Below are positions 6,479-61,287 of a stretch of 64,000 nt of DNA, one piece after another. The stretch is from an uncultured Erysipelotrichaceae bacterium (GTDB taxonomy: Bacteria; Bacillota_I; Bacilli_A; RFN20; CAG-826). The notes beneath the pieces are model-generated. The model did no database searches. It saw nothing but the letters and a program-made list of their open reading frames with translations, and was not told the origin of the DNA. The DNA is taken from assembly GCA_902800905.1 (NCBI GenBank), contig CADCGC010000002.1, positions 59,774 through 123,773 on the forward strand. The letters run 5' to 3'. Both the position numbers and the translations under genes were made by a program. Numbering within the stretch: position 1 is the stretch's first letter; each line of letters begins with the position of its first letter.

Positions 6479-6557
6479 ATTTATATTAGTGAAAGTGTTT
6501 ATAACGATTATAGATGCTTTTTGATATGAAACCATAATGGCAGAAAGGAATTCATTT

Positions 6558-17625: not shown

Positions 17626-17646
17626 TATAAATTGGAGGCCATATTT

Positions 17647-27000: not shown

Positions 27001-28371
27001 TGGAATGGTGTGAAAGATAGTAACCCAACTATGGCGACTGATGAAATCTTCCAAGATTACTATGACGCTGGATTTAGAAAGTGCTTGCCACTTTTTGAAG
27101 GACGAACTGGAGCAAGATATGACTTCAATACTTATTATGATTTGTATCTTGAAGCAACTGGTTCGCAAAAAGAATCATACAAAAACCAATGTATCCAAAA
27201 ACTCGACATTATTTGTGAAAAAGCCGACAGAGACGCGATGGAAATAATGTCTGTTGCCTCTAAATATGGAATTAAATATATTGTTCTTAATTCAATTATT
27301 TTTGAACTAATTGGACAAACTACTCCAAACGGAAACAATATTCAGATTGAAGATTATCCATGGATTTTTGATCGTGTCTTTAGAGATGACAGCGAATATT
27401 TCTATCAAGTTCAATACGTTGGTAACTTTATGCAAGATGAACCAATTGGTGTTGAAGGACTTGAAAGATTATATGCGGCTGTTGTTTTGTATTATCAATA
27501 TACAGCGGCTTTAGGAATTGAAAGTGAACCTGTTATTAATCTACTTCCTGGAAACTACACGGATAATAATTATGTCGCTTATCTTGATTATTATTTTGAA
27601 CATATTGCTCCTCTTGTTGGATATGTTAGCTTTGACCAATATGTCTTACAAGTTTCTAATGGCACTTATTCAGTGAAGTCCACACACTTATCTAACTTAT
27701 ATTTATTAGCCTCACGAGCAAAACAATATAATGTCGATTTAAGAACGTTCATTTTCCCAAGATGTCAGGATGAGGGAAGTAATAGAGGCATTACAATGGC
27801 GGATGAACTAAGGTTCCAAATTTACGCCAATTTGGCTTTTGGTGCTAAAGAAATCATCTATTATGGTTATACAACTCATAACAGCACAAATGAAACAGAA
27901 GGTCTTGTTAATATGTATACCGGAGAGAAGAGCGATGTATATTACTACGCTAAAGAAGTTAATAACGAAGTATTATCTTTCGGTCAAGCATATATGCATT
28001 TCTCATGGGATGGAATTATTGGTAAAGACACTGGTGGGTGGCTAAGTAAAAATACCTGCCTAACTCAATTAAGTAAACTTAATTCGATGAATAGTCACGC
28101 TGGATTATCATCTTTCTCTGTTAATAAGAACTCACTCATTGGTTGCTTCAAAGATAGTGATTCTCAATACGCATATATTCTTATGTATTATGGCGATCCA
28201 AAAACCGCAAGTGGAACAGACACAATTCAATTAACTTTCTTAGACAAATATAATGGCGTTATTGTTTATCAAAACGGTGGAAAACACGCTTATCGAATTG
28301 ATAATCATAAGCAATCTATTACTCTTAATCCTGGTTGTGGAGCGTTTGTTATCCCGGTAACTTTAAATTAG
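24058..28371 (+). CDS. 1437-aa surface protein with an N-terminal anchor, a Cys/His mini-module, 3-4 WWGFG beta-sandwich (CBM-like) modules, and a C-terminal enzyme-like domain (paralogue 3 of 3)
   Basis: GTG start overlapping the upstream gene. N-terminal hydrophobic segment ILFLGVIGVVASAIAL. The repeats and the C-terminal homology (NVDLRTFIFPRCQDEG..ELRFQIYANLAFGAKEIIYYGY..YMHFSWDG) are read directly from the translation. Confidence 0.6.
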   Translation: MKNKTISILFLGVIGVVASAIALSHSHDVALASGTDEHSSSCTWNHYLRVEPTYENDGIQEYYVCCSHHESVLERPTLGTIVDKGTPSSSFISGLEDNDFRLIPSYRKQVKPVQDEIDGLSEAFKISDGSQIDKAYNLYNNTSEELKTYVNDVSKLEGIYERYHESYDVLIDTVNNEYQSKIYNSNYDVEPVLNENAGYCSSFTNITPTDDNWIGFGTSKTTNISNYSEILLYVYSNLNFDCDFDVRYSGSTFDLTNKVKVYSKSWSEITIPLSTFITNQLKDLFVGTWISDARYNTFENGFLFSSLYGVKKITTPSRTYIDLSDDQKTTDTVNFVGDKYIEDVNYAAFVYSPAYSASLGKVNFITTQPYSNVTSVSFDAKIDGTATGWWGIGHSTSIENARIYNGMCTTGVKNTQNEFQHIAINVSVTDPEYIYFIFEVGTFTKNVYIDNVTIVSGGVEYTDDFDSGSSALFNNSSSVLGNAVSIQLISSDAKFLSRSVKDYYVEVSPYNYDTSTLYTRSSYTGVYKVSYDAKVDGTIVNNLSNNEQIWWGFGVTDDPTNVYSGLQFVREVLSTDNEWKHFEYEIQTPVDGYVHFVFNPLKTNVPVLLDNITFFTEGSVFVENFTDGLSTLFNVGAHLDIKKKSDPSITFNGGINASEKDYSVLMDIYNYGNVSGNEATFKTKVPYNNVTSISYDMKIDGTITFTNTDPYWVGVGHDANQNASIYKGLRTSNTFTTNDGWMRFTYTFSGLGLEYFFFVSNPVHAHNNVYFDNVIIVSDGVEYTDTFTNGKSELFNLGSYVSLHFESESMTDEIAYNVLTESQCYFEGPQFVRDNLENYEALVYGSIAHQITGQGRYAILIYNDLNVAEYLFVDDEYISYCSNTSIINATSYNGQSYNISVSVDGRITINNQILAISSGVNDSLKFVSFFSQGSVVFTDISLDSTYREIHTSETIDGIEVPYLYSEDNIVFNAYGSPTVADWNGVKDSNPTMATDEIFQDYYDAGFRKCLPLFEGRTGARYDFNTYYDLYLEATGSQKESYKNQCIQKLDIICEKADRDAMEIMSVASKYGIKYIVLNSIIFELIGQTTPNGNNIQIEDYPWIFDRVFRDDSEYFYQVQYVGNFMQDEPIGVEGLERLYAAVVLYYQYTAALGIESEPVINLLPGNYTDNNYVAYLDYYFEHIAPLVGYVSFDQYVLQVSNGTYSVKSTHLSNLYLLASRAKQYNVDLRTFIFPRCQDEGSNRGITMADELRFQIYANLAFGAKEIIYYGYTTHNSTNETEGLVNMYTGEKSDVYYYAKEVNNEVLSFGQAYMHFSWDGIIGKDTGGWLSKNTCLTQLSKLNSMNSHAGLSSFSVNKNSLIGCFKDSDSQYAYILMYYGDPKTASGTDTIQLTFLDKYNGVIVYQNGGKHAYRIDNHKQSITLNPGCGAFVIPVTLN
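25138..26450 (+). repeat. three tandem ~140-aa beta-sandwich modules (V(S/K)(F/Y)DAK(I/V)DGT....WWG(I/F)G....(I/V)Y.G......W.....(Y/F)..........F.F......V.(I/L/F)DN(V/I).....G.....E.FT.G.S.LFN)
   Basis: The three copies end in VYIDNVTIVSGGVEYTDDFDSGSSALFN, VLLDNITFFTEGSVFVENFTDGLSTLFN and VYFDNVIIVSDGVEYTDTFTNGKSELFN. Confidence 0.65.
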
Positions 28372-47205: not shown

Positions 47206-48116
47206 TAAAACCGACAAATAAATATTCGTCTCAATCAAGAAACGAAAAAGCCTCTTTAATCCTCTCTTATGTCGCTTTGACAATCTTGTCCTTACTTTGG
47301 ATTATTCCAATTTTATGGGTTGTCTTAAACGCATTTAGACAAGACGCTGGTATTGTTTCTAAAGATTTCTTCCCAGAGACCTTCGGTGGAGTGATTAATT
47401 TCAAATTACTCTTTACTGAAACTTACTATGGTGTTGATCATGCTTTCTTACGCTGGATGCTTAACACTCTTATTGTTGCGGTGTTTGACTGTGTGTTTTC
47501 CACCTTCTTAATTCTCTCTGTTGCGTACTGTATGTCTAAACTTAGATTTAAATTACGTAAGGCATTCATGAACTTGACAATGATTATTGGTTTATTCCCA
47601 GGATTCATGTCAATGATTGCTATTTACTACTTATTAAAATCTATCGGTTTAGCTGGTAACACTGCTAGAGATACTTCATGGCTCAACTTAGTTGGTCTTA
47701 TCCTCGCCTATTCCGCCGGTGCAGGTATGGGCTATCAAATCGCTAAAGGATTCTTCGATGTTATACCATCATCCTTAGTTGAATCCGCAAAACTTGATGG
47801 CTGCACCAACTTTAAGATTTTCTGGAAGATTATTCTCCCATTATCCAAGCCAATCATTATTTATACCGCATTAATGTCATTTACAGGACCATGGATGGAC
47901 TTCATCTTTGCCAAGGTTATTATTGGTAACGCTCCTGAAATGTGGACGGTATCAGTTGGATTATATTCCTTGATGTTTGGTTCTCAACCAAAACAAGAAC
48001 TCTTCACTCAATTCGCTGCTGGATGTGTGATTGTTGGTATCCCAATTGTCTCACTCTTCATGGCACTACAGAACTACTATGTTGAAGGTGTCACAGCTGG
48101 TGCTGTTAAAGGTTAA
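47202..48116 (+). CDS. maltodextrin ABC transporter permease MalG-like
   Basis: EAA loop ESAKLDGCTNFKIFWKIILPLSKP. 6 TM helices. Start overlaps the upstream stop (ATGA). Confidence 0.85.
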   Translation: MIKPTNKYSSQSRNEKASLILSYVALTILSLLWIIPILWVVLNAFRQDAGIVSKDFFPETFGGVINFKLLFTETYYGVDHAFLRWMLNTLIVAVFDCVFSTFLILSVAYCMSKLRFKLRKAFMNLTMIIGLFPGFMSMIAIYYLLKSIGLAGNTARDTSWLNLVGLILAYSAGAGMGYQIAKGFFDVIPSSLVESAKLDGCTNFKIFWKIILPLSKPIIIYTALMSFTGPWMDFIFAKVIIGNAPEMWTVSVGLYSLMFGSQPKQELFTQFAAGCVIVGIPIVSLFMALQNYYVEGVTAGAVKG

Positions 48117-48136
48117 GGAATCTATACCACTTATAT

Positions 48137-48161
48137 GGGCTACCTATTTGGTAGCCTTTTA
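48137..48161 (+). terminator. rho-independent terminator after the MalG-like gene
   Basis: GGCTACC-tatttg-GGTAGCC followed by TTTT. Confidence 0.55.
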
Positions 48162-48208
48162 ACACCCTTAAGCAAGAAGTCCCCACTTCTTTAAGTGGAG
48201 GTAGTATG

Positions 48209-49510
48209 TCACACTAAAAAATATAGCACTAGTAAAGCAGTAGCGATAGTTGGGATAGAGATGATTACCCCGTATTTTACAAACCCCACAAAAGAGAATT
48301 TTACTTCGTGTTTCATAAGAAGAGCAGAGAACATGATTCCCGCTAAAGCTCCTAGTGGAGTGAGGAACGCTCCGATGTTGCTACCAACAATTGTAGCGTA
48401 AACCGCTTGAATATATTGAGCGCCTTCTAATCCGTTCATTAAATTAGCAAATAGGATACTCATTGGAATGTTGTTAATGATATTTGCGGAGACATATGAA
48501 GCCGTTCCGTACACAAAAACCAGCGGTTCATGATATAAGAAACCCGCTATTTCGTTTGAAATGCCTTGAGTGTTTAATGCCACAACAATGATGAACATTG
48601 ATAAGAAAAACGGGATTAATTGATATGGCAGTCTCCTTAAAGATTCAGTGACATATAGCCAATTCTTTTTAGTGACGATTCTTGTAATGATATTAAAAAT
48701 CATTAATGAACCCGCACAGCTTAAAGACACAATCCACATTTCAATATTGATATATGAGGAGATGATGAGGAATACTAAGCACACTGAAAGGTGGACAATT
48801 CCAACCCAAAGATCAAACTTGCTTTCTATATGAAAATCATCTTCAACAATTTCTAGTGGTGATAATAGTTGCTTCCTAAAAAATAGGAAGATGATTGATA
48901 GTTCTACAATACCTGCTGCAATAGTAGGCAACGCCATCACTTTAAAGTAACTGACAAAGTCAATGTTAGCGGAGGTTGCTAAATAGATATTAGTAGGGTT
49001 ACCAATAATAAACATCATTGACCATGTATTAGCGGCAGCAAACTCTGCAATTAAATATGGAAGAGGATTAATTTTAGTGTTCTTACAGAAGAAACAAATA
49101 AAAGGCGTGAGAGTTAATATTACAATGTCATTTGATGTAAAGACTGTAAGAATCGAAGTTAAAAAGTAGAAGATAAAGAACAACATTATTTGACTGTTCT
49201 TTGCTTCTTTAGTTGCGAGCTTTGCTAAAAACCTAAATAAACCGGTTTCATCAAGGAAGATTGATAAGAAAGTCATCGAGAAAAATAGGACAATGATTTT
49301 AAGTGGATTAACTTCATTGCTACTTGTTAATTGATTGAAAACCTCGCCTATTGGGGCTAACGAAGAAGCAAGTAAAATTATTGCCCCGAGAGTGGCAATC
49401 ATCCAGTAAGTATCTAATCTAAACTTTTCAATTCTAATGTGTGGGAAGAATAGTATTGATAGAGTGATGAGAACGAATGTTGTTATTGCAATAATTAATG
49501 TCGCAATCAT
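48209..49510 (-). CDS. polytopic permease of the ArsB/NhaD/CitMHS ion-transporter superfamily (substrate unknown)
   Basis: 433 aa and ~11-12 TM helices. The internal GNPTNIYLA segment resembles ArsB/NhaD-type proteins. Confidence 0.45.
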   Translation of the reverse strand: MIATLIIAITTFVLITLSILFFPHIRIEKFRLDTYWMIATLGAIILLASSLAPIGEVFNQLTSSNEVNPLKIIVLFFSMTFLSIFLDETGLFRFLAKLATKEAKNSQIMLFFIFYFLTSILTVFTSNDIVILTLTPFICFFCKNTKINPLPYLIAEFAAANTWSMMFIIGNPTNIYLATSANIDFVSYFKVMALPTIAAGIVELSIIFLFFRKQLLSPLEIVEDDFHIESKFDLWVGIVHLSVCLVFLIISSYINIEMWIVSLSCAGSLMIFNIITRIVTKKNWLYVTESLRRLPYQLIPFFLSMFIIVVALNTQGISNEIAGFLYHEPLVFVYGTASYVSANIINNIPMSILFANLMNGLEGAQYIQAVYATIVGSNIGAFLTPLGALAGIMFSALLMKHEVKFSFVGFVKYGVIISIPTIATALLVLYFLV

Positions 49511-49583
49511 AAATAAACCAAACGATATTATGCTCTTAATTTTTTGAAAAACAACAATAAATATTTGTTAATATATTATTGCA

Positions 49584-50327
49584 ATGAAATTTGAAGAAGT
49601 AAGTTGGTATTCTGAGCGACTTTGTAGAGAAATGAATATCAAGATTTATGGTCACTACGGGCCAGCTTTTATCGCGTTTCCTTGTCAAAACAAACAAAGT
49701 GATGATTTATCAAACAACGGAATGATTAACGCTTTGAGTTACTATCTAGAAAACGGATTAATGAAATTGTTCTGTGTTGATTCAAATGATGATGAAACCG
49801 TTTCTTCTTATTCTTGGGATATGGGTTATGCTGGATATAAACTTGAAATGTATCATCAATACATCATTAATGAAGTCCTTCCTTTCGTTTATGACAACAT
49901 GAAAGGGTACTGTGAGCCTTTCCTAATTGGAATGAGCATGGGAGGAAGTCATGCAGCGAACAATTTCTTCCGAAGACCCGAACTCTTTAGTGGGTTTATC
50001 GGATTAAGTGGAAAATACGATATAGCCAGTTTCTTTCATGGTTATATGGATGAAAACATCTATATGAACTCACCAACACATTGCTTAAGAAATATGCCAA
50101 ATGATCACCCATATATCAATCTTTTCAACCAAAAGAAAATGATTGTAGTGGTGGGTAGAGGTGCTTGGGAACACTTAGTCATTGACTCTAACTACGAACT
50201 AGCGAATATCGCTCATGAAAAAGGAATTAATATCGATTTCAATTTCTGGGATGAGAACAGTGTCCATGATTGGGTGAGCTGGTTATACCAAATGCCAATA
50301 TTTATCGATAAGATTTTAAAAGAGTAG
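49584..50327 (+). CDS. esterase-family alpha/beta hydrolase (putative esterase PF00756-like)
   Basis: Nucleophile-elbow GMSMGG with the surrounding FLIGMSMGGSHAANNFFRRPELFSGFIGLSG, as in esterase D/enterochelin-esterase-like proteins. Confidence 0.6.
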   Translation: MKFEEVSWYSERLCREMNIKIYGHYGPAFIAFPCQNKQSDDLSNNGMINALSYYLENGLMKLFCVDSNDDETVSSYSWDMGYAGYKLEMYHQYIINEVLPFVYDNMKGYCEPFLIGMSMGGSHAANNFFRRPELFSGFIGLSGKYDIASFFHGYMDENIYMNSPTHCLRNMPNDHPYINLFNQKKMIVVVGRGAWEHLVIDSNYELANIAHEKGINIDFNFWDENSVHDWVSWLYQMPIFIDKILKE

Positions 50328-50352
50328 GTAAGGGCCTACTTTTTTACCATAA

Positions 50353-50381
50353 GTCTCATTTGTTTACAAAAAATAGTGATA
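50353..50381 (+). promoter_or_regulatory. putative promoter TTTACA-N17-TATAAG for the AcnX/reductase operon
   Basis: Preceded by a weak hairpin-T6 at about 50328-50350. RBS AAGGAG at about 50398. Confidence 0.5.
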
Positions 50382-50412
50382 GAATTATAAGTGTATTAAG
50401 GAGATTCCGGTT

Positions 50413-51708
50413 ATGTATAAACCAAAAATGGAATTAACCTTGGAACAAAGAGAAATACTTGAAGGCAAACAAGGACCAACCATGGCGAAGATTATGGAAA
50501 CGGTTGTAATGTTTGGTGATATTTTTGATGCACCAAGGTTAGTGAAAGTCACTCATGATGATGGCCACTTAGTAACTTCTTTTGGAATTAAGTTATTAAA
50601 GCCACTTTTTTCAACAATGGAACAAATCAATGAAGCAGGAATTACCACCAAAGGTGTCTTTACTGTTGATCCTCGCCCAATTGATTATGAAAACGTTAAG
50701 TGTAACTTACTAGAGAAACTCGTGTTTTCAAAAGTCATGTACGCCAAACAAGAAATGTATGAAGAACAATTATATAAGGCAGGTCTAAAAGACAGTAACG
50801 CTTTCACATGTGCTTCTTACTTACCAGAAATTGGTAACACTCCAAAAGAAGGCGATATCTTGGCGTGGGCTGAAAGTAGTGCGGTTGTCTTTGCTAATTC
50901 CGTACTTGGCGCTAGATGTAACCGTAATAGTGGAATGATTGACCTCTTTGGTTCAATCCTTGGCTATGTTCCTGAATTTGGACTATTAACCGATGAAGGA
51001 AGAAAAGCCAAATGGAAAGTCATCATTAAATGCGCCAAGAAACCTGAAGCACAAATCTTAGGTTCCGCTATTGGAATGAAAGTCATGGAAGATGTCCCAT
51101 ATGTCATCGGCCTAGACAAATGGTTAGGTAATGAGATTAATGATGAAAATACTGGATATCTTAAGGATTTTGGTGCCGCAACAGCCTCTAATGGAGCAGT
51201 TGGTTTATATCACATTGATGGATTAACTCCAGAAGCTAAGAGGTTAGGACAAAAACTCATTAGAGAAGACGCCAAAGAATATATTATCGATGATGCTGAA
51301 CTTGAAAGAGTGTACGCCTCATATCCAATTATGTGGAAGAAACCAGAAAAGAAAGGAAACCTTGTCTTTATTGGATGTCCACATCTTACATTCACTCAAC
51401 TAAATGATTGGACCGATAAGATTATTGCTGGATTAAAAGAAACAGGACATAAGAAAGTTGTTGTTAGAACAATCATGACAACCGCTCCTGATATCTTAGA
51501 CAAGTTCAAGAAGACTCCTAAATATGAAGAACTATTAAAGACTGGTGTTAAAGTGACAACCATTTGTCCACTTATGTACACTAATAACCCATTAACTAAA
51601 GCTAGAAGAATCTATACAAGTTCTAACAAGTTAAGAACTTATAGCACTGCTAGATATGCGAAAGACCAAGAAATACTGGATTTCGTTATTGGAAAGGAGG
51701 CTAAGTAA
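50413..51708 (+). CDS. AcnX (aconitase X) large subunit, DUF521: type IIa cis-3-hydroxy-L-proline dehydratase-like / mevalonate-5-phosphate dehydratase-like
   Basis: 431 aa. The N-terminus ..LTLEQREILEGKQGPTMAKIMETVVMFGDIFDAPRLVKVTHDDGH fits the DUF521 signature. A DUF126-type small subunit follows. Confidence 0.7.
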   Translation: MYKPKMELTLEQREILEGKQGPTMAKIMETVVMFGDIFDAPRLVKVTHDDGHLVTSFGIKLLKPLFSTMEQINEAGITTKGVFTVDPRPIDYENVKCNLLEKLVFSKVMYAKQEMYEEQLYKAGLKDSNAFTCASYLPEIGNTPKEGDILAWAESSAVVFANSVLGARCNRNSGMIDLFGSILGYVPEFGLLTDEGRKAKWKVIIKCAKKPEAQILGSAIGMKVMEDVPYVIGLDKWLGNEINDENTGYLKDFGAATASNGAVGLYHIDGLTPEAKRLGQKLIREDAKEYIIDDAELERVYASYPIMWKKPEKKGNLVFIGCPHLTFTQLNDWTDKIIAGLKETGHKKVVVRTIMTTAPDILDKFKKTPKYEELLKTGVKVTTICPLMYTNNPLTKARRIYTSSNKLRTYSTARYAKDQEILDFVIGKEAK

Positions 51709-51709
51709 G

Positions 51710-52150
51710 ATGAAAGAATTTAAAGGTAGAGTAATTGCAGGTGGTAACTGGAAAGGTGAAGCTGCAGTATCTCATCAAGGATTTAATACTTTAGCGTCAT
51801 TCCAAAAGAGCGCTCTTAATAACTCAAAGCAAGTCTTGGTTTCTGATCAAAATAACAAAGACTTATTTGGCGTTAATATTACTGGCAAGGCCTTATGCTT
51901 ACCAATTACAATTGGTAGCACTACTGGTGGACTTGTTATTCAAACAGTCTGTCAAATGGGTATTGCTCCTTCTTGTTTCCTCTTTTCAGAATCAATTGAT
52001 TCTTTAGCAGCCTCTGGCATTGTTTTAGCGAAGATTTGGGAGAATTCACCAGTTATCGCTATTGATAGATTAGGCGAAGAATTCTTAAATACTGTTAAGA
52101 CTGGCGACAAATTAGAAGTTAAAGAAGATGGAACTGTCATTATCCTATAG
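51710..52150 (+). CDS. AcnX small subunit (DUF126)
   Basis: Start trimmed to MKEFKGRV behind GGAGG, 1 nt after the large-subunit stop. ~146 aa. The GRVIAGGNWKGEAAVSHQGFN..AS start is typical of DUF126. Confidence 0.65.
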   Translation: MKEFKGRVIAGGNWKGEAAVSHQGFNTLASFQKSALNNSKQVLVSDQNNKDLFGVNITGKALCLPITIGSTTGGLVIQTVCQMGIAPSCFLFSESIDSLAASGIVLAKIWENSPVIAIDRLGEEFLNTVKTGDKLEVKEDGTVIIL

Positions 52151-52158
52151 GAGAGATT

Positions 52159-54210
52159 ATGAGAAAAGATATTGAACCATTACTTACTCCTTGGAAAATA
52201 GGAAACTGTGAAATTAAAAATAGAATTGTCCTCACCTCAATGGGTGGAACTGATTTATTTGGTTGGATGGAAATGAACCATTTTGATAAAGATGGTGCTC
52301 GTTTCATTATGGAAGTTGCGAAGAATAACTGCGGTCTTCTTCTTCCTGGGTGTCAACCTGTTTATAACCCAATGTTTGGACAATGGTTGTTTAAAAACAA
52401 AAAGATGTTTAAAGACCTTGCTGAATGGATGCCAGAATTCCATAAGACAGGGGCTAAATTATTCATTCAATTAACTGCTGGATTTGGTAGAAGTTTCACT
52501 GTTAGTGAAATGATGGAAAAACTCTATAACAACAAAGTGTTAAGAGCGCTTTCTAAACCAGTAATGGATTTAGATAAGATTACCGCGTCAGCTTCTCCAT
52601 CTCCAAATAGATGGTCAGACAAACTTCCATCTAGAGAAATGACTAAAGAAGAAATTGAATATTTCATCCAAGCCTTTGCAAAATCCGCGAAGCTTTGCAA
52701 AGACGCAGGTGTTGATGGTGTTGAGATTCATGCGGTTCACGAAGGATATCTTCTTGACCAATTCACTCTCAAATACGTTAACAAGAGAACTGATGAATAT
52801 GGTGGCTCTTTAGAAAATAGATATCGCTTTGCGATTGAAATTGTTAAGGCCATCAAAAAGGAATGTGGAGATGACTTCCCAGTTTCCTTAAGATATTCAG
52901 TTGTTAGTAAAACTAAAGGATTTAGAGAAGGGGCTCTTCCTGGAGAAGAATACACTGAAGTAGGACGTGACTTTGAAGAATCTATTTTAGCGGCGAAAGC
53001 TTTAGAAGAAGCAGGCTATGATATGCTTAACTGTGATAATGGAACATATGATGCATGGTATTGGGCTCACCCACCTGTTTATATGCCTGAAAATTGTAAC
53101 CTTGAATATGTCGAAAAACTCAAACCACATGTAGGTATCCCACTCGTTTGCGCTGGAAGGATGACTTTAGAAGCTGGAGCAAAGAGCGTTAAAGAAGGCA
53201 AACTTGATGGTGTTGGTTTTGCTCGTAATTTCTTAGCGGACCCAGAGTGGTTCACTAAAGTGCTTAACGGACAAGAACAAGAAATTAGACCTTGTATCCA
53301 TTGCCATAATGGCTGTTTCAATATGTGTCACTATAAAGGTGTACCAAACGATCAAGACTTAAGTGATTCATTACATCTTTCTAGGTGTGCGGTTAACGCG
53401 GAAATGATGCAGTGGAACAAACATAAGATTGTTAAGACTGATAAACCAAGGACAGTTCACATCGTTGGTGGAGGTATTGGTGGTATGGAAGTTGCTCGTG
53501 TTCTTAAACTAAGAGGACACAATCCAATCATTTATGAAAAGAGTGATGTCTTAGGTGGAACGTTCATTCCTGCAAGTGCAGAATCATATAAATATCGCTT
53601 AAGACAACTCCTAACTTGGTATCGATATCAAATGGAGAAACTTGGAGTCGAAATTAAGTTCAACACTGAGATTAAAGATATCAATCAATTCAAAGGCGAG
53701 CCAGTTGTGATTGCTACTGGTAGTAAACCAAGAATTCTTAATGTTCCTGGTAAAGAAAGAATGATTGAAGCTTGCGAATATCTAAACGGTAAGAAAGTTG
53801 GAGATAAAGTTGCAGTCATTGGTGGTGGTCTCACTGGTAGTGAAATCGCTTATGAATTAGAACTACAAGGACATCACCCAATCATCATTGAAATGAAAGA
53901 TGACTTAGTGGCGCAAAAAGGCGTTTGCTTAGCAAACTCTTCATACTTAAGAGAATACTTCGCATGGAAGAAAGTCCCTGTTTATCTAGAAACAATGCTT
54001 AAAGAAGTCAAAGAAAAATCAATCGTTGTGACTAATAAAGAAGGAAAAGAACAAGAGATTGAATGTGATTCAGTTATCTCTTCTGTCGGTTATATTCCAA
54101 CTCCTCTTGTGACCAAAGGAAGTAATGTTTATCTCGTAGGAGATTGCTTACAAGTTGGCAATTTAAGAAGTGTCATTTGGAGAGCCTACGAAGTAGCGAT
54201 GAAAATCTAA
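52159..54210 (+). CDS. flavoprotein of the 2-enoate reductase / 2,4-dienoyl-CoA reductase (FadH) family: OYE-like TIM barrel, 4Fe-4S motif and FAD/NAD(P)-binding domain
   Basis: 683 aa. OYE N-terminus LLTPWKIGNCEIKNRIVLTSMGG. Cys cluster CIHCHNGCFNMCHYKG. Rossmann VHIVGGGIGGMEVA and a second VAVIGGGLTGSEIA. Confidence 0.8.
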   Translation: MRKDIEPLLTPWKIGNCEIKNRIVLTSMGGTDLFGWMEMNHFDKDGARFIMEVAKNNCGLLLPGCQPVYNPMFGQWLFKNKKMFKDLAEWMPEFHKTGAKLFIQLTAGFGRSFTVSEMMEKLYNNKVLRALSKPVMDLDKITASASPSPNRWSDKLPSREMTKEEIEYFIQAFAKSAKLCKDAGVDGVEIHAVHEGYLLDQFTLKYVNKRTDEYGGSLENRYRFAIEIVKAIKKECGDDFPVSLRYSVVSKTKGFREGALPGEEYTEVGRDFEESILAAKALEEAGYDMLNCDNGTYDAWYWAHPPVYMPENCNLEYVEKLKPHVGIPLVCAGRMTLEAGAKSVKEGKLDGVGFARNFLADPEWFTKVLNGQEQEIRPCIHCHNGCFNMCHYKGVPNDQDLSDSLHLSRCAVNAEMMQWNKHKIVKTDKPRTVHIVGGGIGGMEVARVLKLRGHNPIIYEKSDVLGGTFIPASAESYKYRLRQLLTWYRYQMEKLGVEIKFNTEIKDINQFKGEPVVIATGSKPRILNVPGKERMIEACEYLNGKKVGDKVAVIGGGLTGSEIAYELELQGHHPIIIEMKDDLVAQKGVCLANSSYLREYFAWKKVPVYLETMLKEVKEKSIVVTNKEGKEQEIECDSVISSVGYIPTPLVTKGSNVYLVGDCLQVGNLRSVIWRAYEVAMKI

Positions 54211-54232
54211 AGTACATATATATGTATTTATG

Positions 54233-54257
54233 GCCCAAGGCAACTTGGGTCTTTTTT
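54233..54257 (+). terminator. rho-independent terminator after the reductase gene
   Basis: GCCCAAG-gcaa-CTTGGGT followed by CTTTTTT. Confidence 0.65.
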
Positions 54258-54301
54258 GAACTTCTAAGTCTATGATATAATCATAGTAACAAGGTTTAAT
54301 T

Positions 54302-55642
54302 ATGGATGGCTTAACACTCTTTTACATGTTTGCCACAATACTTCTTATCATTTTGATGGTTGCAATGAGTATCCATGTTTTGAATTACTCTGGTTTTAAC
54401 AAGCAACAAAAAGGATGGTTTATTGCTACCTTTGCATCAATTTCTTTCTGTGCTTTGGCGGAGTTTATGCTACACGGAATTCCATATGATCCTCGTTTTA
54501 AAGTTATATTAACAATCTTAACCGTTCTCCAATTTGCGTTAGCTCCTTGCTTTGCGATGCTATTTGCTGGTGCTCTTGGCTTAAGATATCAAGGTAGAAT
54601 CGCTATCATATTCTTTGGAATATGTTTATTAATTGGAGTGTGCTGCGCTCCATTTGAATTAGTGTTCCTCTTTAGAGATGTTGCTGACGAGACATATAAA
54701 TTTGGTTATAATCGTGGTCCGTTATTCATTATTTATCTAATCACATATTTTACTAGCTTGGTTTATATCATTATTGCCCTATTCATTGTTGGAAGAAAAT
54801 TCCACCATCGTGATATTAGCACGATTATCATGGTCCTTGTTGTTTTAGCAGCAGGTATCATTCCAATGACTATATATCAACTTCATATTGCTTATATTGC
54901 TGTTGGTATGGCAGCGTGTTTATGTTATGTCTATTACAACGATCTTGTACAACAAGATACGAGTGCTGAATTACTAGAAAAACAACAAAAGATATCAGAA
55001 TTACAAACTCAGATTACCGCTCGTCTTGCTAACTTAATTGAATCTAGAGACACCGAAACTGGTGGACATGTTGCTAGAACTAGTGAATATGTCAAAACTC
55101 TAGCGGAAGATTTAAAGGCAGATGGAGTGTACACCGATATAATTAACGACCATTTCATTTTCTTACTCTACAATCTTGCCCCAATGCATGATGTTGGAAA
55201 GATTCTTGTCTCTGATAAGATTTTAAGAAAACCTGGAAGATTAACTCCTGAAGAATATGAAGAGATTAAAAAACATGCTTCTATGGGTGGTACAGTTGCT
55301 CGACAAGTATTGAGTGGCATCGCTGATGAAGAGTATCTAAATTTTGTTTCTGATATTGCAACCTATCACCACGAAAGATGGGATGGTAATGGCTATCCAA
55401 ATAAGTTAAGTGGTGAAGATATTCCATTATGCGCTAGGATTATGGCAATCGCTGATGTCTTTGATGCTTTAGTGTCAAAAAGATGTTATAAAGAAGCAAT
55501 GCCAGTAGAAGAAGCATTTAAAGAAATTGAAAAAGAATCTGGAACACACTTTGATCCAAAACTAGTGGAAGTGTTCCTTAAACATAAAGAAAAATATGCA
55601 TCAATTAACGCAGAGATTACCGACAAGGAAAAAGGTGGGTGA
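54302..55642 (+). CDS. membrane-anchored HD-GYP domain c-di-GMP phosphodiesterase (multi-TM sensor N-terminus)
   Basis: ~7 TM helices, then HD...HDVGK, YHHERWDGNGYPN (GYP motif) and IADVFDAL. Confidence 0.85.
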   Translation: MDGLTLFYMFATILLIILMVAMSIHVLNYSGFNKQQKGWFIATFASISFCALAEFMLHGIPYDPRFKVILTILTVLQFALAPCFAMLFAGALGLRYQGRIAIIFFGICLLIGVCCAPFELVFLFRDVADETYKFGYNRGPLFIIYLITYFTSLVYIIIALFIVGRKFHHRDISTIIMVLVVLAAGIIPMTIYQLHIAYIAVGMAACLCYVYYNDLVQQDTSAELLEKQQKISELQTQITARLANLIESRDTETGGHVARTSEYVKTLAEDLKADGVYTDIINDHFIFLLYNLAPMHDVGKILVSDKILRKPGRLTPEEYEEIKKHASMGGTVARQVLSGIADEEYLNFVSDIATYHHERWDGNGYPNKLSGEDIPLCARIMAIADVFDALVSKRCYKEAMPVEEAFKEIEKESGTHFDPKLVEVFLKHKEKYASINAEITDKEKGG

Positions 55643-55651
55643 ATAAAAGAC

Positions 55652-56866
55652 ATGAAGAAAATTGTCTTTTTGACTAGAAAAGAGTCACCTCGATACGAGT
55701 ATTTAATGAGTATTCTTGAAGGAGAATATGAAGTTTTAGTTGCTACAGGAAGAGATGAAATTATAAAACTTCTCGACGAATCATTTAGTAAACTATCTGC
55801 TTTCATTATTGATAATCCTTCTCATGTTTTATGCATTGATGATTTATTTAAATTCATCCAAAGCAAAAACAGTTATATGTTCACTCTACCTATTCTTTTG
55901 CTTACCGACGAAGAAAACTCTGATAAAGATGACGCTTATTTATGTGATTTAGCAGTAGGAATGATTACCAAAGGAGAGAGTAAGAAAACTGTTCTTCAAA
56001 GAATCAAAAACACAATTACATTCTCAAGCTCAAGAAGCTTTGATGACTTCTCTGATATGCTTAAAGTCCTTCCTTCTTTAATTTATGTCAAAGACATTGA
56101 TGGAAGATACGCTTTCTGTTCTCAGCACTGGCATCACCTTACTAGACCAGGAGAATCCATTAGAGGTCTTACCGATTTTGATATTCGTAAAGATAAGAAT
56201 AACGCGAGGATCGCTCGTGAGTCTGATTTAAAGGTTATTGAAACCGGACAAGGGATGAACTATGTCATTAAAGAAGACACGGATGAAGGTATCGATTATC
56301 TTCAAGTCATTAAAGAACCTTTGAAGAATGAAAGAGGAGAGGTTACTGGTATTATTGCAATTATCAATAATGTTACTAACGAAGAACTTCTTAGACAGGA
56401 ATTAAGATATAAATCAATTACTGACCAATTAACAGGTGTCTTTAATCGTATGTATTTTGAAGAAGTGGCGAAGAAATATAAAGACAATCTCCCAACCCCA
56501 CTTACTTTAATTGCCGCGGACTGTGATGGTCTTAAGAAGATTAATGACAAATTTGGCCATGCAGCGGGCGACAAATACATTTGTTGGGCTAGAGACCTTC
56601 TAAAAGAATCTCTCCCTGAAGACTCTTTGCTCTTTAGAATGGGTGGAGATGAATTCATCGCTGTTGTTAAAAATACCGATAAGCTTAAGGCTGCGACTTA
56701 CGTCAAAAAGATCATGCATAACGCCAAAAAATATAAGAATGAAGACTTTATGCTTCGCATTTCTGTTGGAAGCTACACGATTACGAGAAAGACTCAATCG
56801 ATTGAAACCGCAATGGTGTTAAGTGACAAAGAAATGTACAAGATGAAGAAGTCACATAGGAAATAA
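55652..56866 (+). CDS. GGDEF-domain diguanylate cyclase with N-terminal receiver-like and PAS-like segments
   Basis: C-terminal LTGVFNRMYFEE...DCDGLKKINDKFGHAAGD...RMGGDEFIAV (intact GGDEF). Confidence 0.85.
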   Translation: MKKIVFLTRKESPRYEYLMSILEGEYEVLVATGRDEIIKLLDESFSKLSAFIIDNPSHVLCIDDLFKFIQSKNSYMFTLPILLLTDEENSDKDDAYLCDLAVGMITKGESKKTVLQRIKNTITFSSSRSFDDFSDMLKVLPSLIYVKDIDGRYAFCSQHWHHLTRPGESIRGLTDFDIRKDKNNARIARESDLKVIETGQGMNYVIKEDTDEGIDYLQVIKEPLKNERGEVTGIIAIINNVTNEELLRQELRYKSITDQLTGVFNRMYFEEVAKKYKDNLPTPLTLIAADCDGLKKINDKFGHAAGDKYICWARDLLKESLPEDSLLFRMGGDEFIAVVKNTDKLKAATYVKKIMHNAKKYKNEDFMLRISVGSYTITRKTQSIETAMVLSDKEMYKMKKSHRK

Positions 56867-57024: not shown

Positions 57025-57522
57025 ATGAATAAAATCATTAATATTAAAAACAAAAAAGCAATTGTTGAAATTCAAAAGTTTAAAGACAAAAAATATTCTC
57101 TCATAGATATCAAGTTTGAAAATGTACATTTAAAAGACATTAATAAATACGTTCTTTTCGATTTGTTTGATAAAAATGATTTATATATTAATTCGACAAC
57201 TTTATGGGAACTAATGCAGCCAATTGGCAAATCTGGATCTCATAATTATCATAATTTGACTCCAGAAGATATTTACAATGCTTTGAATTCAATCATAGAA
57301 CCATATTGTGTTTTTAAAGTAAAAAACGATAGATATGCAGTTATACCAGTATATGTGTCTTCGTTCGATGAGCCTATATTGATTGTTATAGAAAAAGGTG
57401 CTGAGTTAATAAATAAGCAAAACGCAAATATAAACAAAATTGTAACTATGTATCCGAAAAGCGATATAGACAATTATTTAAAAGGAATCAATGAAAAAGA
57501 TATTATATACATAAAAAAATGA
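57025..57522 (+). CDS. hypothetical protein, very AT-rich orphan ORF (165 aa)
   Basis: Lys/Asn/Ile-rich with no motif recognised. It sits in an AT-rich stretch between two terminators and an unusually GC-rich 130-nt segment. Confidence 0.35.
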   Translation: MNKIINIKNKKAIVEIQKFKDKKYSLIDIKFENVHLKDINKYVLFDLFDKNDLYINSTTLWELMQPIGKSGSHNYHNLTPEDIYNALNSIIEPYCVFKVKNDRYAVIPVYVSSFDEPILIVIEKGAELINKQNANINKIVTMYPKSDIDNYLKGINEKDIIYIKK

Positions 57523-57699
57523 GAACCGAACGGGGCTCCAATTGCCACCTTGGATTCTCTACCGTTTGAAGATGTACCTTTTTATGGGCCCTGTCTTCTC
57601 TTCGCCACTCTTTTATAAAGCGTCTAGGTCAAGAGGCTATTTACAAATATAGCTTTGGCTAGCTACCTATATTATATATTGTTCGGGAGGAACTGCAAT

Positions 57700-58554
57700 A
57701 TGAAACAAGAACAAATTGGTCCAAAAATCAAAAAACTTAGAAAGAATAAAGGATTAACCCAAACCGAATTAGCGGATGCTCTAGGCTACTCTGGAAAATC
57801 TGCTATTGCTCATATTGAAAAAGGCGATGCTGATATGACTTATGAGAAGATCCTCCTTCTTTTAAGAACATATATGTTAGATGCTAACGAATTGTTTGAA
57901 GTCGAGAAGCTTGATAAGCAATTAGATGATTGGAGAACGGAACAAAGGAAAAACAAAAAAGTAGTGGTATATATTCATGGATTATATGGATCTGCTAACG
58001 AGGCCGAAAACTATTCTTATTTAAAAGATGAATATGATGTGGTTGGACTCGATTATCAAGACGGAAATCCTTGGGAGTTAGAAGATGCTATAAGAAACAA
58101 ATTCATAAAACTGACTAAAAGCTATAAAGAAGTAGTTATAATTGCCAATTCTATTGGAGCGTATTATGCATATGAATATCTAAGCGATTTTGATATCAAA
58201 CGAGCGTTCTTCATTTCTCCATTAGCGAGTATGTATCAAATTATATTAAACATAATGATGTCTAAAGACATATATTTAGAAGAACTAAAAGAACAAAGAT
58301 TAATTAATATAGATGATAAAACAACTATTTCTTATGAATACTTAAAATATCTAGAAAACCATAAAGATAATTGGGAAGTCCCAACTGAAATCTTATACGG
58401 TGAAAGAGATAATGTTGTTTACATTGAGAATATTGCGGATTTTTTGGCAGATCACCCTAATGCTAGATTGACAATTAAAAAAGGGGCAGAACATTATTTC
58501 CATACCCCTGATGAAAAAGATTTTATTAAGAACTGGATTTTAAGAAATCTCTAA
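57700..58554 (+). CDS. XRE-family HTH domain fused to an alpha/beta-hydrolase fold domain
   Basis: Start trimmed to MKQEQ behind GGGAGG. HTH IKKLRKNKGLTQTELADALGYSGKSAIAHIEKG. Hydrolase segment VVVYIHGLYGS...IIANSIGAYYA (GxSxG-like ANSIG). Confidence 0.6.
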   Translation: MKQEQIGPKIKKLRKNKGLTQTELADALGYSGKSAIAHIEKGDADMTYEKILLLLRTYMLDANELFEVEKLDKQLDDWRTEQRKNKKVVVYIHGLYGSANEAENYSYLKDEYDVVGLDYQDGNPWELEDAIRNKFIKLTKSYKEVVIIANSIGAYYAYEYLSDFDIKRAFFISPLASMYQIILNIMMSKDIYLEELKEQRLINIDDKTTISYEYLKYLENHKDNWEVPTEILYGERDNVVYIENIADFLADHPNARLTIKKGAEHYFHTPDEKDFIKNWILRNL

Positions 58555-59747: not shown

Positions 59748-61163
59748 TTAATCCTTCTTTTCAATTATGTTTCTAGCGATGTATATTCCACAGGCACTGG
59801 CTTGTGCAAGACCTCTAGTAAGTCCTGCTCCATCACCTGCTACGTATAAGTTCTTTATACCTTTAACTTCTAATTTCTTATCCATATCTGGGTGAGCACT
59901 ATAATACTTGGCTTCAACACCATATAAAAGAGTGTGCTCGGTAGCGATACCTGGAGTGATTTTATCTAAGACTTCAATCATTTCAATAATTGATCTCATT
60001 GTTTTATATGGTAAAGCAAGGGCTAAATCGCCAGGGACAGCCTCTTTTAAGGTTGGCCTAACAAATCCTTCGTTAATTCTTTTTACGGTACTTCTTCTAC
60101 CTAATTTGATGTCTCCGTATTTTTGAACAATGACCGAACCACAGGCAAGTTGATTCGCTAAAGAAGAAACTTTTAAAGCGTATTCATTAGGTTTCTTGAA
60201 TGGTTCTTCAAATTTATGAGAAACAAGTAAGGCAAAGTTTGTGTTATTACTTGAGTATTTGGAATTGTTATAGGAGTGGCCATTAACATTAACAACACCT
60301 TCATAGTTTTCCATAACAACGTGTCCACCTGGGTTAGAACAGAATGTTCTGACTGTGGAGCCTACAGATGTCTTATAGACAAACTTTCCTTCGTATAGGT
60401 TTTCATTAATTTCTTCCATAACGAGGTTTGGACATTCAACACGAACACCGATATCAACTTGAGTTTGTGTCATTGGAATTTGGTATCTATCAAATAGTTC
60501 GTTAAGCCATTTAGAGCCTTCTCTTCCAACACCCAAAACGACGTATTTAGCCTCAAGAACCTCACCGTTTTCAAGTTTGACACCTTTTACGACATTATTC
60601 TCATCGATGATATCTATCACTTTAGTGGAGAATCTCATATCAATCTTTTCTTTTAAATGGTCATATATTCTAGAAAGAATTTTGAGGTTTTCTTCTGTAC
60701 CTAAGTGTCTAACTTTACTTCTAAGAAGTTTGACACCGACAGACATCGCTCTTCTTTCAATTTCTCTAACTTTATCAGTTTCTGGATTGGTAATGACTTC
60801 AGTCGCACCAAAAGAAAGGTTGATTTTATCAACGTAATCAATGATGTCCATTAATTCTTCTGGACTCATGTAATCTATCAGCCAACCACCGAATTCGGTA
60901 GTAATATTAAACTTTCCATCAGAGTATGCGCCCGCCCCTCCAAATCCGTTGGTGATTGAACAAGCTGGGAAGCACTCTCTATAGCCCTTTTGACTAATTG
61001 GGCAACGGTCAATTTTGTGTTCTAAAACTGGGCAATGTCTTTCATAAATATTCTTACCTCTATCAAGGAGAAGAATTTTAAGGTCGCTTCTCTTATGAGC
61101 GAGCTCGTAAGCACACATGTATCCACTTGGGCCGGCGCCTACAATTATGACATCGTATTTCAT
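59748..61163 (-). CDS. FAD-dependent dehydrogenase (COG2509-like uncharacterised family)
   Basis: Start trimmed to MKYDVIIVGAGPSG (Rossmann GxGxxG) behind a G-rich RBS. C-terminal YVAGDGAGLTRGLAQASACG. Co-oriented with the CofE-like gene, 3 nt apart. Confidence 0.6.
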   Translation of the reverse strand: MKYDVIIVGAGPSGYMCAYELAHKRSDLKILLLDRGKNIYERHCPVLEHKIDRCPISQKGYRECFPACSITNGFGGAGAYSDGKFNITTEFGGWLIDYMSPEELMDIIDYVDKINLSFGATEVITNPETDKVREIERRAMSVGVKLLRSKVRHLGTEENLKILSRIYDHLKEKIDMRFSTKVIDIIDENNVVKGVKLENGEVLEAKYVVLGVGREGSKWLNELFDRYQIPMTQTQVDIGVRVECPNLVMEEINENLYEGKFVYKTSVGSTVRTFCSNPGGHVVMENYEGVVNVNGHSYNNSKYSSNNTNFALLVSHKFEEPFKKPNEYALKVSSLANQLACGSVIVQKYGDIKLGRRSTVKRINEGFVRPTLKEAVPGDLALALPYKTMRSIIEMIEVLDKITPGIATEHTLLYGVEAKYYSAHPDMDKKLEVKGIKNLYVAGDGAGLTRGLAQASACGIYIARNIIEKKD

Positions 61164-61287
61164 AGTGAATTCCCCCCTAGAAAACACCATAAAATTATAA
61201 CATTTCCTCCTTATCTTTTATATAGAAAGTCTTATTATTTTATCTTTGTCTTGGAATTATCTTTTTTTGATACAATAATAGTTGCGT

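Follow-up and report, generated by a model that had tools for sequence, protein, structure and literature searches.

A predicted split AcnX dehydratase encoded beside an Enr/FldZ-type 2-enoate reductase in gut Firmicutes

A 64,000-nucleotide (nt) stretch of DNA from an uncultured rumen bacterium of the Erysipelotrichaceae (GenBank assembly GCA_902800905.1, contig CADCGC010000002.1, positions 59,774 to 123,773 of the forward strand; hereafter the window) carries an operon of three tightly packed plus-strand genes. They encode the large subunit of an AcnX dehydratase (AcnX-L, 50413-51708, 431 aa, stop TAA at 51706-51708), its small or swivel subunit (AcnX-S, 51710-52150, 146 aa, stop TAG at 52148-52150) and a predicted 2-enoate reductase of the Enr/FldZ family (52159-54210, 683 aa). 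Both component families are known; what appears to be new is the systematic partnership of this AcnX subclass with enoate reductases. The pairing recurs in dozens of gut Firmicutes species, and no published description of it, or of the function of this AcnX subclass, was found in the literature available.

The two AcnX genes are separated by a single nucleotide (g, 51709), and AcnX-S and the reductase gene by 8 nt (52151-52158). The AcnX-S start codon (ATG, 51710) carries its own AAAGGAGG, and the open reading frame (ORF) called mechanically from 51656 is an upstream extension of the same ORF; the GGAGAG of the reductase gene overlaps the AcnX-S stop codon. A ribosome-binding site, AAGGAGA (50398-50404, plus strand), lies 8 nt upstream of the AcnX-L ATG. 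A possible sigma-70-type promoter (50363-50391, plus strand; -35 TTTACA at 50363-50368, 17-nt spacer, -10 TATAAG at 50386-50391) was picked out by eye and is weak evidence. A consensus promoter scan made no call there because the last base of the -10 element is G. The operon ends in an intrinsic terminator (54232-54257, plus strand), a hairpin with an 8-bp GC-rich stem and 4-nt loop (54232-54251) followed by six T residues up to 54257. Together with an AT hairpin just upstream it forms a 61-nt stretch (54205-54265) that folds at -18.6 kcal/mol (z -4.06), and a terminator scan found no similar site on the plus strand within the three genes. An earlier reading of this DNA made from the letters alone, here called the original prediction, had given this ORF layout, spacing and terminator accurately to the base, although the start it gave, 50353, falls in the untranslated leader.

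AcnX-L matches the AcnX family PF04412 (E 8.5e-90, 301.8 bits, cut-off 31.5) and AcnX-S the AcnX swivel domain PF01989 (E 8e-11, 42.1 bits, cut-off 27). The nearest solved structure to AcnX-L is chain A of the mevalonate-5-phosphate dehydratase (PMDh) of Thermococcus, 7cnr_A (E 3.4e-36 with the single sequence, 1.2e-46 with a family profile), and AcnX-S matches 7cnr_B (E 5.1e-11, alignment profile). The cis-3-hydroxy-L-proline (C3LHyp) dehydratase of Agrobacterium is a more distant structural match than the Thermococcus pair. By alignment, the catalytic set of AcnX is complete, and its three cluster cysteines follow the archaeal pattern. These are, in AcnX-L, Cys133 at site A, Cys322 at site 1 (in GCPH) and Cys385 at site B; all are invariant in 20 orthologues, as are Glu154-Ser155-Ser156, Lys406 and Tyr410. 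In AcnX-S the catalytic Ser70 (small-subunit residues are marked S below) lies within an invariant Gly-Ser-Thr-Thr-Gly-Gly, the turn being Ser70-Thr71-Thr72. This core aligns with Thermococcus Cys110, Glu129, Ser130, Ser131 and Cys283 and with Agrobacterium Cys508, Lys530 and Tyr534, the latter three equated with Thermococcus Cys342, Lys361 and Tyr365 (residue roles from PMC8184944 and PMC10040528). The cysteine pattern predicts a [4Fe-4S] cluster. In the original prediction, missing ligand cysteines would have counted against the two-step module; they are present and invariant.

The residues that set specificity in the characterised enzymes are another matter. In the Agrobacterium enzyme C3LHyp is bound by Trp35, Thr72, Asp203 and Ile206, and only the threonine is kept in the window (Thr72(S)). 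Asp203, which holds the proline nitrogen, is replaced by Val54; Ile206, a ring contact equivalent to Ser50 of the Thermococcus phosphate loop, by Phe57; and Trp35, a ring contact equivalent to Thermococcus Leu27(S), by Leu28(S). The position of the third Agrobacterium ligand, Cys510 (site C), is taken by Leu387. For type IIb, the phosphate-binding positions Gly48-Val49-Ser50, Asn53 and Asn79 were tested. The phosphate-binding backbone Gly48-Val49-Ser50 becomes Thr55-Ser56-Phe57, and Asn79, which contacts phosphate (Agrobacterium Asn233 hydrogen-bonds to the Glu), becomes Asp86. These replacements are invariant in the family, cultured relatives included. The equivalences come from sequence alignment of a variable loop, in which the MAFFT placement agrees with the published structure-based one. 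The family-specific loop of AcnX-L reads His52-Leu-Val-Thr-Ser-Phe-Gly58, and Asp86, Arg88 and Arg408 are further landmarks. Specificity profiles agree: the NCBIfam model for C3LHyp dehydratase (NF051439, cut-off 700) gives 149.6 bits with AcnX-L and 26.8 bits with AcnX-S, and the small-subunit (DUF126) equivalog gives 45.7 bits against a cut-off of 163.

Type IIa enzymes keep all the C3LHyp-binding residues and have only two candidate cluster cysteines, at sites A and B (PMC8184944). Since the residues that bind hydroxyproline and those that bind the phosphate of mevalonate-5-phosphate are both absent, the window protein is best classed, from its sequence, as a split type II AcnX that is neither IIa nor IIb. 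It fits the bacterial types IIc to IIf, which belong to the bacterial type II subclasses a and c-f, lack the landmarks of both activities and have functions described as unknown (PMC8184944; repeated in PMC10040528). The type IIa label of the original prediction thus holds for the split architecture and fails for the subclass, the cysteines following the IIb pattern and the binding positions being Val54, Phe57 and Leu28(S). Its two worked examples, hydroxyproline and mevalonate, lose their binding landmarks as well, and a look through the window and the flanks of about 170 related loci found no mevalonate or hydroxyproline gene, AMPD/UbiD-type decarboxylases, mevalonate kinase and isopentenyl phosphate (IP) kinase included. 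Among 1.84 billion proteins the whole AcnX family has 1716 representatives (50% identity clusters, E <= 1e-3); its catalytic core is constant and its specificity loops vary greatly. Some relatives are labelled "phosphomevalonate dehydratase large subunit-like" in UniRef.

Archaeal PMDh (type IIb; TK1249/TK1248, PDB 7cnr/7cns, and the Aeropyrum enzyme) is the best sequence match. It shares with the window proteins the split subunits, cysteine sites A, 1 and B, the Glu-Ser-Ser, Lys and Tyr, and the catalytic Ser of the small subunit. Identity is about 33% over aligned columns, however; the phosphate loop and Asn79 are replaced in the window, and both window subunits have extra conserved insertions. 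The window AcnX is bacterial, has no mevalonate context and has a reductase as partner, whereas the partner of archaeal PMDh is a UbiD-type decarboxylase. C3LHyp dehydratase (types I and IIa) shares the superfamily fold, the catalytic Ser, Glu, Lys and Tyr and the fact that its product is reduced next. It differs in its cluster ligands, a [2Fe-2S] on Cys273, Cys508 and Cys510 in type I and two candidate cysteines in type IIa as against the archaeal pattern of the window; in identity, 26% over aligned columns with Asp203, Ile206 and Trp35 gone; and in the next enzyme of its pathway, a pyrroline-2-carboxylate reductase unrelated to the window reductase.

The third protein of the operon matches PF00724 (Oxidored_FMN, E 1.6e-53) and PF07992 (Pyr_redox_2, E 1.2e-31). 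Its flavin mononucleotide (FMN; OYE) domain has the motif His191-Ala-Val-His194-Glu-Gly-Tyr197, cysteines 379, 382, 386 and 410 are those of a 4Fe-4S cluster, and GGGIGG (437-442) and GGGLTG (555-560) are the motifs for flavin adenine dinucleotide (FAD) and NAD(P)H. His191, His194, Tyr197, the four cysteines and both dinucleotide motifs are invariant or nearly so in 127 orthologues. The OYE, 4Fe-4S and FAD modules named in the original prediction were thus borne out by Pfam and motifs, and their combination in one chain is that of the 2-enoate reductases (~73 kDa).

Its "FadH-like" label was not. The window active-site motif HAVHEGYLLDQF is the same as that of the clostridial 2-enoate reductases (Enr/FldZ), which use NADH to reduce free alpha,beta-unsaturated carboxylates (PMC5882074). 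In a comparison with the supplementary alignment of the Clostridium sporogenes FldZ paper (PMC5882074), the window's GVEIHAVHEGYLLDQF is exactly that of FldZ and of the C. tyrobutyricum and C. kluyveri Enr, with Moorella thermoacetica one residue off. The stretch H-A-V-H-E-G-Y-L-L-D-Q-F is common to the characterised Enr enzymes (Met for Val in M. thermoacetica) and does not vary among the window protein's 127 orthologues, and the blocks YDAWYWAHPP and DFPVSLRYS are also held in common with the window. FadH (GVEVMG-SEGYLINEF) and NCR (GVEVCAI-VGYLIADF) lack the His-x-x-His pair at this site. On this motif, which is that of free-acid 2-enoate reductases and unlike that of FadH, the partner is assigned to the Enr/FldZ type rather than FadH, and activity on free 2-enoates is predicted. 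Among the characterised proteins compared, FldZ is the best match (37% identity over the full length, 383 bits). The best PDB matches are 2-naphthoyl-CoA reductase and FadH, and the alignment with the FadH structure 1ps9 covers only residues 157-570 (160.7 bits). The top NCBIfam models, BaiCD (348.6 bits, cut-off 825) and the long form of BilR (335.5 bits, cut-off 750), are matched at under half their cut-offs.

The clostridial 2-enoate reductases (EC 1.3.1.31; FldZ and the Enr of C. tyrobutyricum, of C. kluyveri and of M. thermoacetica) have the three-module architecture of the window enzyme. The latter is longer by about 20 residues, through an insertion near 112-135 and another of about 11 residues within the cysteine motif, and has an AcnX partner, of which the FldZ paper makes no mention (PMC5882074). 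FadH, 2-naphthoyl-CoA reductase, BaiCD/BaiH and BilR belong to the same superfamily of Fe-S flavoenzymes, but act on coenzyme A (CoA) esters or on large non-acid substrates.

Conservation of the pairing was followed from both sides, in a species scan (one genome per GTDB species) that confirmed at least 590 relatives and yielded 80 loci whose AcnX-L has 60-86% identity, and in a metagenome survey of 80 contigs starting from the reductase. An orthologous reductase gene lies within 2.5 kb of AcnX in 55 of the 80 species loci. In 50 of these 55 it lies on the same strand, directly upstream, and the 49 measurable gaps have a median of 12 nt. Three further species have a paralogous Enr-family gene (26% identity) directly upstream of AcnX, and so an Enr-family gene stands beside AcnX in 58 of the 70 species loci that can be evaluated, the other 10 contigs being too short. 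AcnX-S adjoins AcnX-L at every species locus where the contig permits. From the reductase side, AcnX is adjacent in 31 of the 80 metagenome contigs. A lack of conserved linkage would have spoken against the original prediction; the linkage is conserved.

The genes occur in four arrangements. Reductase, large subunit, small subunit (RED-L-S) is the commonest; the order of the window (L-S-RED) is found also in L003, L085, L123, L134 and L151, a divergent arrangement in L004-L006 and a convergent one in L026. The two partners also differ in how far they have diverged. In L004-L006 AcnX-L is 75-77% identical to that of the window and the reductase just 61-62%; in L031 and L038 the figures are 63% and 75-76%, and in a common type of human-gut contig 59% and 76%. 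By these identities the partners have been re-assorted among loci. Reductases adjacent to AcnX and those that are not interleave in a neighbour-joining tree, which argues that the linkage has been lost several times rather than never having been present. That the genes have been juxtaposed time and again, in more than one order and with changing partners, is strong evidence for their functional coupling. No other neighbour is conserved, as judged by ORF clustering of the 80 + 80 loci and by Pfam on 113 flanking genes and 20 cluster representatives. The commonest among the 113 flanking genes are MarR (5), DegV (4), DHDPS (3) and PanE (3), and the rest are housekeeping genes. In the flanking genes scanned there was no recurrent CoA-transferase, CoA-ligase or acyl-CoA enzyme beside the module, and no conserved transporter, pathway gene or single type of regulator.

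The window loop motif extends to cultured organisms, as His-[Leu/Ile/Val]-Val-Thr-Ser-[Phe/Met]-Gly with Asp86, Asp91, Gln113, Tyr116, Gln119 and Arg408; Arg88 is variable, being Lys or Met in two. The carriers, with AcnX at 44-59% identity, are Clostridium carboxidivorans P7, Thermoanaerobacter sp., C. thailandense, Capillibacterium thermochitinicola, a Clostridium sp., Bacillus sp. 1P02SD and Rhodococcus species. An Enr-family gene adjoins AcnX in all five anaerobes. Their AcnX-linked reductases fall into three Enr subclades: a classical Enr-like one, 47-58% identical to FldZ (58% for the Thermoanaerobacter reductase), the gut clade of the window, and a clade of 722-797 aa. Regulators near the module vary, with TetR in C. 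carboxidivorans, a PAS-domain sigma-54 activator and, in some metagenome-assembled genomes, MarR. Short genes for methyl-accepting chemotaxis proteins (237-290 aa) flank the module in three clostridial species. In C. carboxidivorans P7 (L165:4945-6985) the AcnX-linked reductase is called as one ORF of 549 aa and another of 124 aa, the two between them matching the whole enzyme; this is either a frameshift or pseudogene or a sequencing error.

The simplest reading is that the operon encodes a two-step, CoA-independent route from a beta-hydroxy-carboxylate through a 2-enoate to the saturated carboxylate, since the AcnX and Enr families both recognise a free carboxylate. Its probability is put at about 0.6, and the idea of dehydration followed by reduction of the new double bond, already present in the original prediction, is supported by the cysteines and the conserved linkage. 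In the first step the heterodimeric AcnX, with its predicted [4Fe-4S] cluster, would take a free beta-hydroxy-carboxylate. The carboxylate would be held by Ser155, Lys406 and Thr71(S), and the 3-hydroxyl by the open iron and Glu154/Lys406; Ser70(S) would take the C2 proton and water would be lost to give the 2-enoate. In the second step the Enr/FldZ-type enzyme would draw electrons from NAD(P)H, pass them by way of FAD and the 4Fe-4S cluster to FMN, and saturate the free enoate at C2=C3. In a fermenting gut anaerobe such a module would be a sink for NADH. The analysis establishes the layout and domains of the genes, the conservation of their catalytic and cofactor residues, a linkage both kept and repeatedly made anew, and the absence of the residues that set specificity in the two characterised AcnX activities; we infer the order of the reactions, the [4Fe-4S] type of the cluster, that NADH is the donor, that the module is an electron sink, and what kind of substrate it takes.

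Fumarase with fumarate reductase, CaiD with CaiA (carnitine to gamma-butyrobetaine) and FabZ with FabI follow the same chemical logic, from a beta-hydroxy acid or ester through an enoate to a saturated product, as an electron sink or for chain saturation. Their protein families are unrelated to those of the window. The Cai and Fab steps, moreover, need CoA or acyl carrier protein (ACP) thioesters, whereas the families of the window enzymes bind free carboxylates.

As to the substrate, the residues that replace the phosphate loop (Val54, Thr55, Phe57 and Leu28(S)) are bulkier and partly hydrophobic, so the pocket tentatively suits a small beta-hydroxy acid, smaller than mevalonate phosphate. 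Asp86 may simply stand in for the Asn that hydrogen-bonds to the catalytic Glu. The individual candidates are 3-hydroxybutyrate (through crotonate to butyrate), 3-hydroxypropionate or 3-hydroxyisobutyrate, 3-hydroxy-3-methylglutarate or mevalonate in unphosphorylated, catabolic use, and carnitine-type 4-substituted 3-hydroxybutyrates; each is, at best, an unlikely guess when taken singly. Three other ideas were set aside. Tricarballylate or trans-aconitate was considered on account of the rumen origin and a CitMHS-like permease nearby, but the papers found on it offer nothing at the level of genes and the invariant Asp86 speaks weakly against polycarboxylates, and it is a minor candidate only. 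In one Clostridium sp. the module directly follows bioY-bioD-bioA and bioB (L171:2107-9741, L172:2086-9741); a pimelate or biotin substrate was dropped since this is seen in that one species only. A fatty-acid substrate, considered from DegV/FakB-like and MarR neighbours in a few Acutalibacteraceae, was dropped because the loci are too few and all related.

Several observations weigh against the two-step route from a beta-hydroxy acid. No reductase is adjacent to AcnX in 12 of the 70 evaluable species loci, with L009, L012, L015, L016 and L020 as examples of AcnX loci without one, and 26 of the 80 metagenome contigs have room on both sides of the reductase and no AcnX; as such unlinked loci exist, neither gene strictly needs the other nearby. 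Rhodococcus and Bacillus keep the same AcnX as two genes only, with a divergent LysR and no reductase, which implies either that the enoate has other fates or that AcnX may act there as a hydratase. Judged by these two aerobes, the reductase has been added only in anaerobes, to a dehydratase whose specificity is apparently constant. Between the window reductase and the characterised Enr enzymes identity is only 36-37%, two HMMER alignments of the specificity loop differ by 1-2 positions, and the function of the AcnX subclass is proposed from sequence comparison. With no transporter or single type of regulator conserved, the context gives no clue to the substrate.

The aerobes lead to an alternative in which both enzymes act on the same, possibly toxic, 2-enoate, AcnX hydrating it and the reductase saturating it, as parallel branches of detoxification or assimilation. 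AcnX reactions are reversible (the hydration direction was assayed in PMC10040528), AcnX stands alone with LysR in the aerobes, and the regulators found are of stress or xenobiotic types (MarR in 5 of 113 flanking genes, TetR in C. carboxidivorans). The tight translational coupling and the fixed RED-L-S order in 50 species suit a pathway better, and hydration would give an anaerobe nothing further without another, unlinked enzyme; this alternative is considered unlikely. Quite unlikely is a beta-hydroxy acid bearing a 2-amino or 2-hydroxy group, which AcnX would convert to an enamine or enol for the flavoenzyme to trap reductively, as in serine to alanine or threonine to 2-aminobutyrate. Such chemistry would be analogous to that on C3LHyp and Thr72(S) is kept, but the contact to the alpha-nitrogen is not acidic (Val54), enamines and enols tautomerise fast, and Enr enzymes are known for stable 2-enoates (PMC5882074).

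Hydroxyproline itself, with AcnX forming pyrroline-2-carboxylate from C3LHyp and the flavoenzyme reducing it to proline, has the precedent of type I and IIa AcnX, the retained Thr at the Agrobacterium Thr72 position and an enamine C2=C3 bond that, conjugated to the carboxylate, is formally a 2-enoate. It is nonetheless very improbable: the Agrobacterium Asp203 that contacts the ring nitrogen, and whose Ala mutant is inactive, is lost along with Ile206, Trp35 and Cys510, the three cysteines follow the IIb pattern, the C3LHyp dehydratase profile falls far below its cut-off, hydroxyproline genes are absent from the window and the related loci, and the known pathway uses a reductase of a different family. 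A role for AcnX in a modified isoprenoid pathway or in mevalonate salvage, as the dehydratase of phosphomevalonate or mevalonate, would agree with the closest solved relative, its three-cysteine pattern and the UniRef labels, but there is very little chance of it. The phosphate positions are changed, with the acidic side chain of Asp86 unfavourable for phosphate (roles from PMC8184944), the small-subunit equivalog score is well short of its cut-off, no module has a mevalonate kinase, UbiD-type decarboxylase or IP kinase nearby, and reduction of anhydromevalonate has no place in isoprenoid synthesis. Neighbours without any functional tie, kept together by descent or brought together by chance, would accord with the loss of adjacency in several lineages. 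Several independent arrangements, re-assorted partners, three Enr subclades and a spread over Bacilli and Clostridia, with nothing else nearby conserved, make this explanation hardly credible.

The physiological substrate of the clostridial 2-enoate reductases has been debated since their first description, and most work on the enzymes has been for biocatalysis. The references of PMC5882074 include a paper from 1980 on their "possible physiological role". Both the 2021 structural paper (PMC8184944) and the 2023 PMDh paper (PMC10040528) describe what the bacterial AcnX subclasses do as unknown. One coupled assay could assign both the function of the orphan AcnX subclass and the native role of the clostridial enoate reductases, in organisms that can be grown. 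The module is put at several hundred or more species of gut, rumen and hindgut Firmicutes (at least 590 relatives), besides culturable Clostridium, Thermoanaerobacter and Capillibacterium. If the two-step route is correct, it would be an electron sink that is widespread in gut fermentations yet not annotated, supplying a short-chain or modified acid that is invisible to current pathway-based metagenome annotation. The boldest form of the proposal, a widespread CoA-free "beta-hydroxy-acid respiration" from which the native task of the classical clostridial enoate reductases, and that of the orphan AcnX, would become clear, is speculative and improbable as it stands. Its most consequential version would involve a host- or diet-derived substrate, for example 3-hydroxybutyrate converted to butyrate without CoA intermediates, or alternatively carnitine converted to gamma-butyrobetaine without cai genes.

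Upstream of the operon, across an 85-nt leader, lies a PF00756 "putative esterase" gene (49584-50327, plus strand), which is confined to contigs of the same organism (L001, L002) and absent in L003 and all other loci. Two genes upstream and divergent is a CitMHS/ArsB-type permease of the ion-transporter superfamily (48209-49510, minus strand). L003 has a 64%-identical copy in the corresponding position, L007 has a 50% copy about 6 kb off, and the other loci have none; it could be this lineage's uptake system for the acid substrate. Downstream of the terminator are an HD-GYP-type phosphodiesterase with a membrane N-terminus (54302-55642, plus strand) and, 9 nt further on, a receiver-like/PAS/GGDEF diguanylate cyclase (55652-56866, plus strand), a pair for cyclic-di-GMP turnover. 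No riboswitch or other Rfam family was found in window positions 48000-55000.

In five species of uncultured Clostridia the 170-185-nt spacer between the reductase and AcnX-L genes contains the Gut-1 RNA motif (RF01706) on the coding strand (L057:3950-4027, L054:4472-4558, L064:1244-1323, L061:3582-3661 and L052:8001-8077, plus strand, Rfam). Four of the sites exceed the Rfam gathering threshold; the fifth came to light through a model made in the present analysis. The motif consists here of 4-5 short hairpins, each after GUGAAAU or GUGAUAU, with stems that covary from locus to locus. The window lacks it, and no other copy was found at E below 0.001 in 1.3 Mb of related loci. Gut-1 was published as an RNA of the human gut only, not cis-regulatory and probably unaffiliated with mRNAs (PMC2864571). 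Its location in the spacer within the operon, and nowhere else in the 1.3 Mb, suggests that it is a cis element of the reductase-AcnX operon. In another species the same spacer position (L072:994-1377) holds an analogous array of hairpins with AAUGAGGU between them instead of GUGAAAU, which may be a second variant of a Gut-1-like element.

The rest of the window encodes mostly glycoside hydrolases and sugar ABC transporters. Within one such cluster are four large ORFs, consecutive on the plus strand, that have no Pfam match (17632-19956, 19949-21430, 22878-24068 and 24058-28371; 769, 493, 396 and 1437 aa), and a fifth large ORF of this kind (6537-9290, ~910 aa) lies near it. An F420-ligase-family protein (PF01996, 58551-59744, minus strand) next to a GIDA/FAD-dependent protein (59748-61190, minus strand) is an unexpected pair in a gut Bacilli-type genome. 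A small MuF_C-domain protein (57025-57522, plus strand) followed by a fusion of HTH-XRE and alpha-beta-hydrolase domains (57655-58554, plus strand) may be a prophage remnant or a toxin-related pair.

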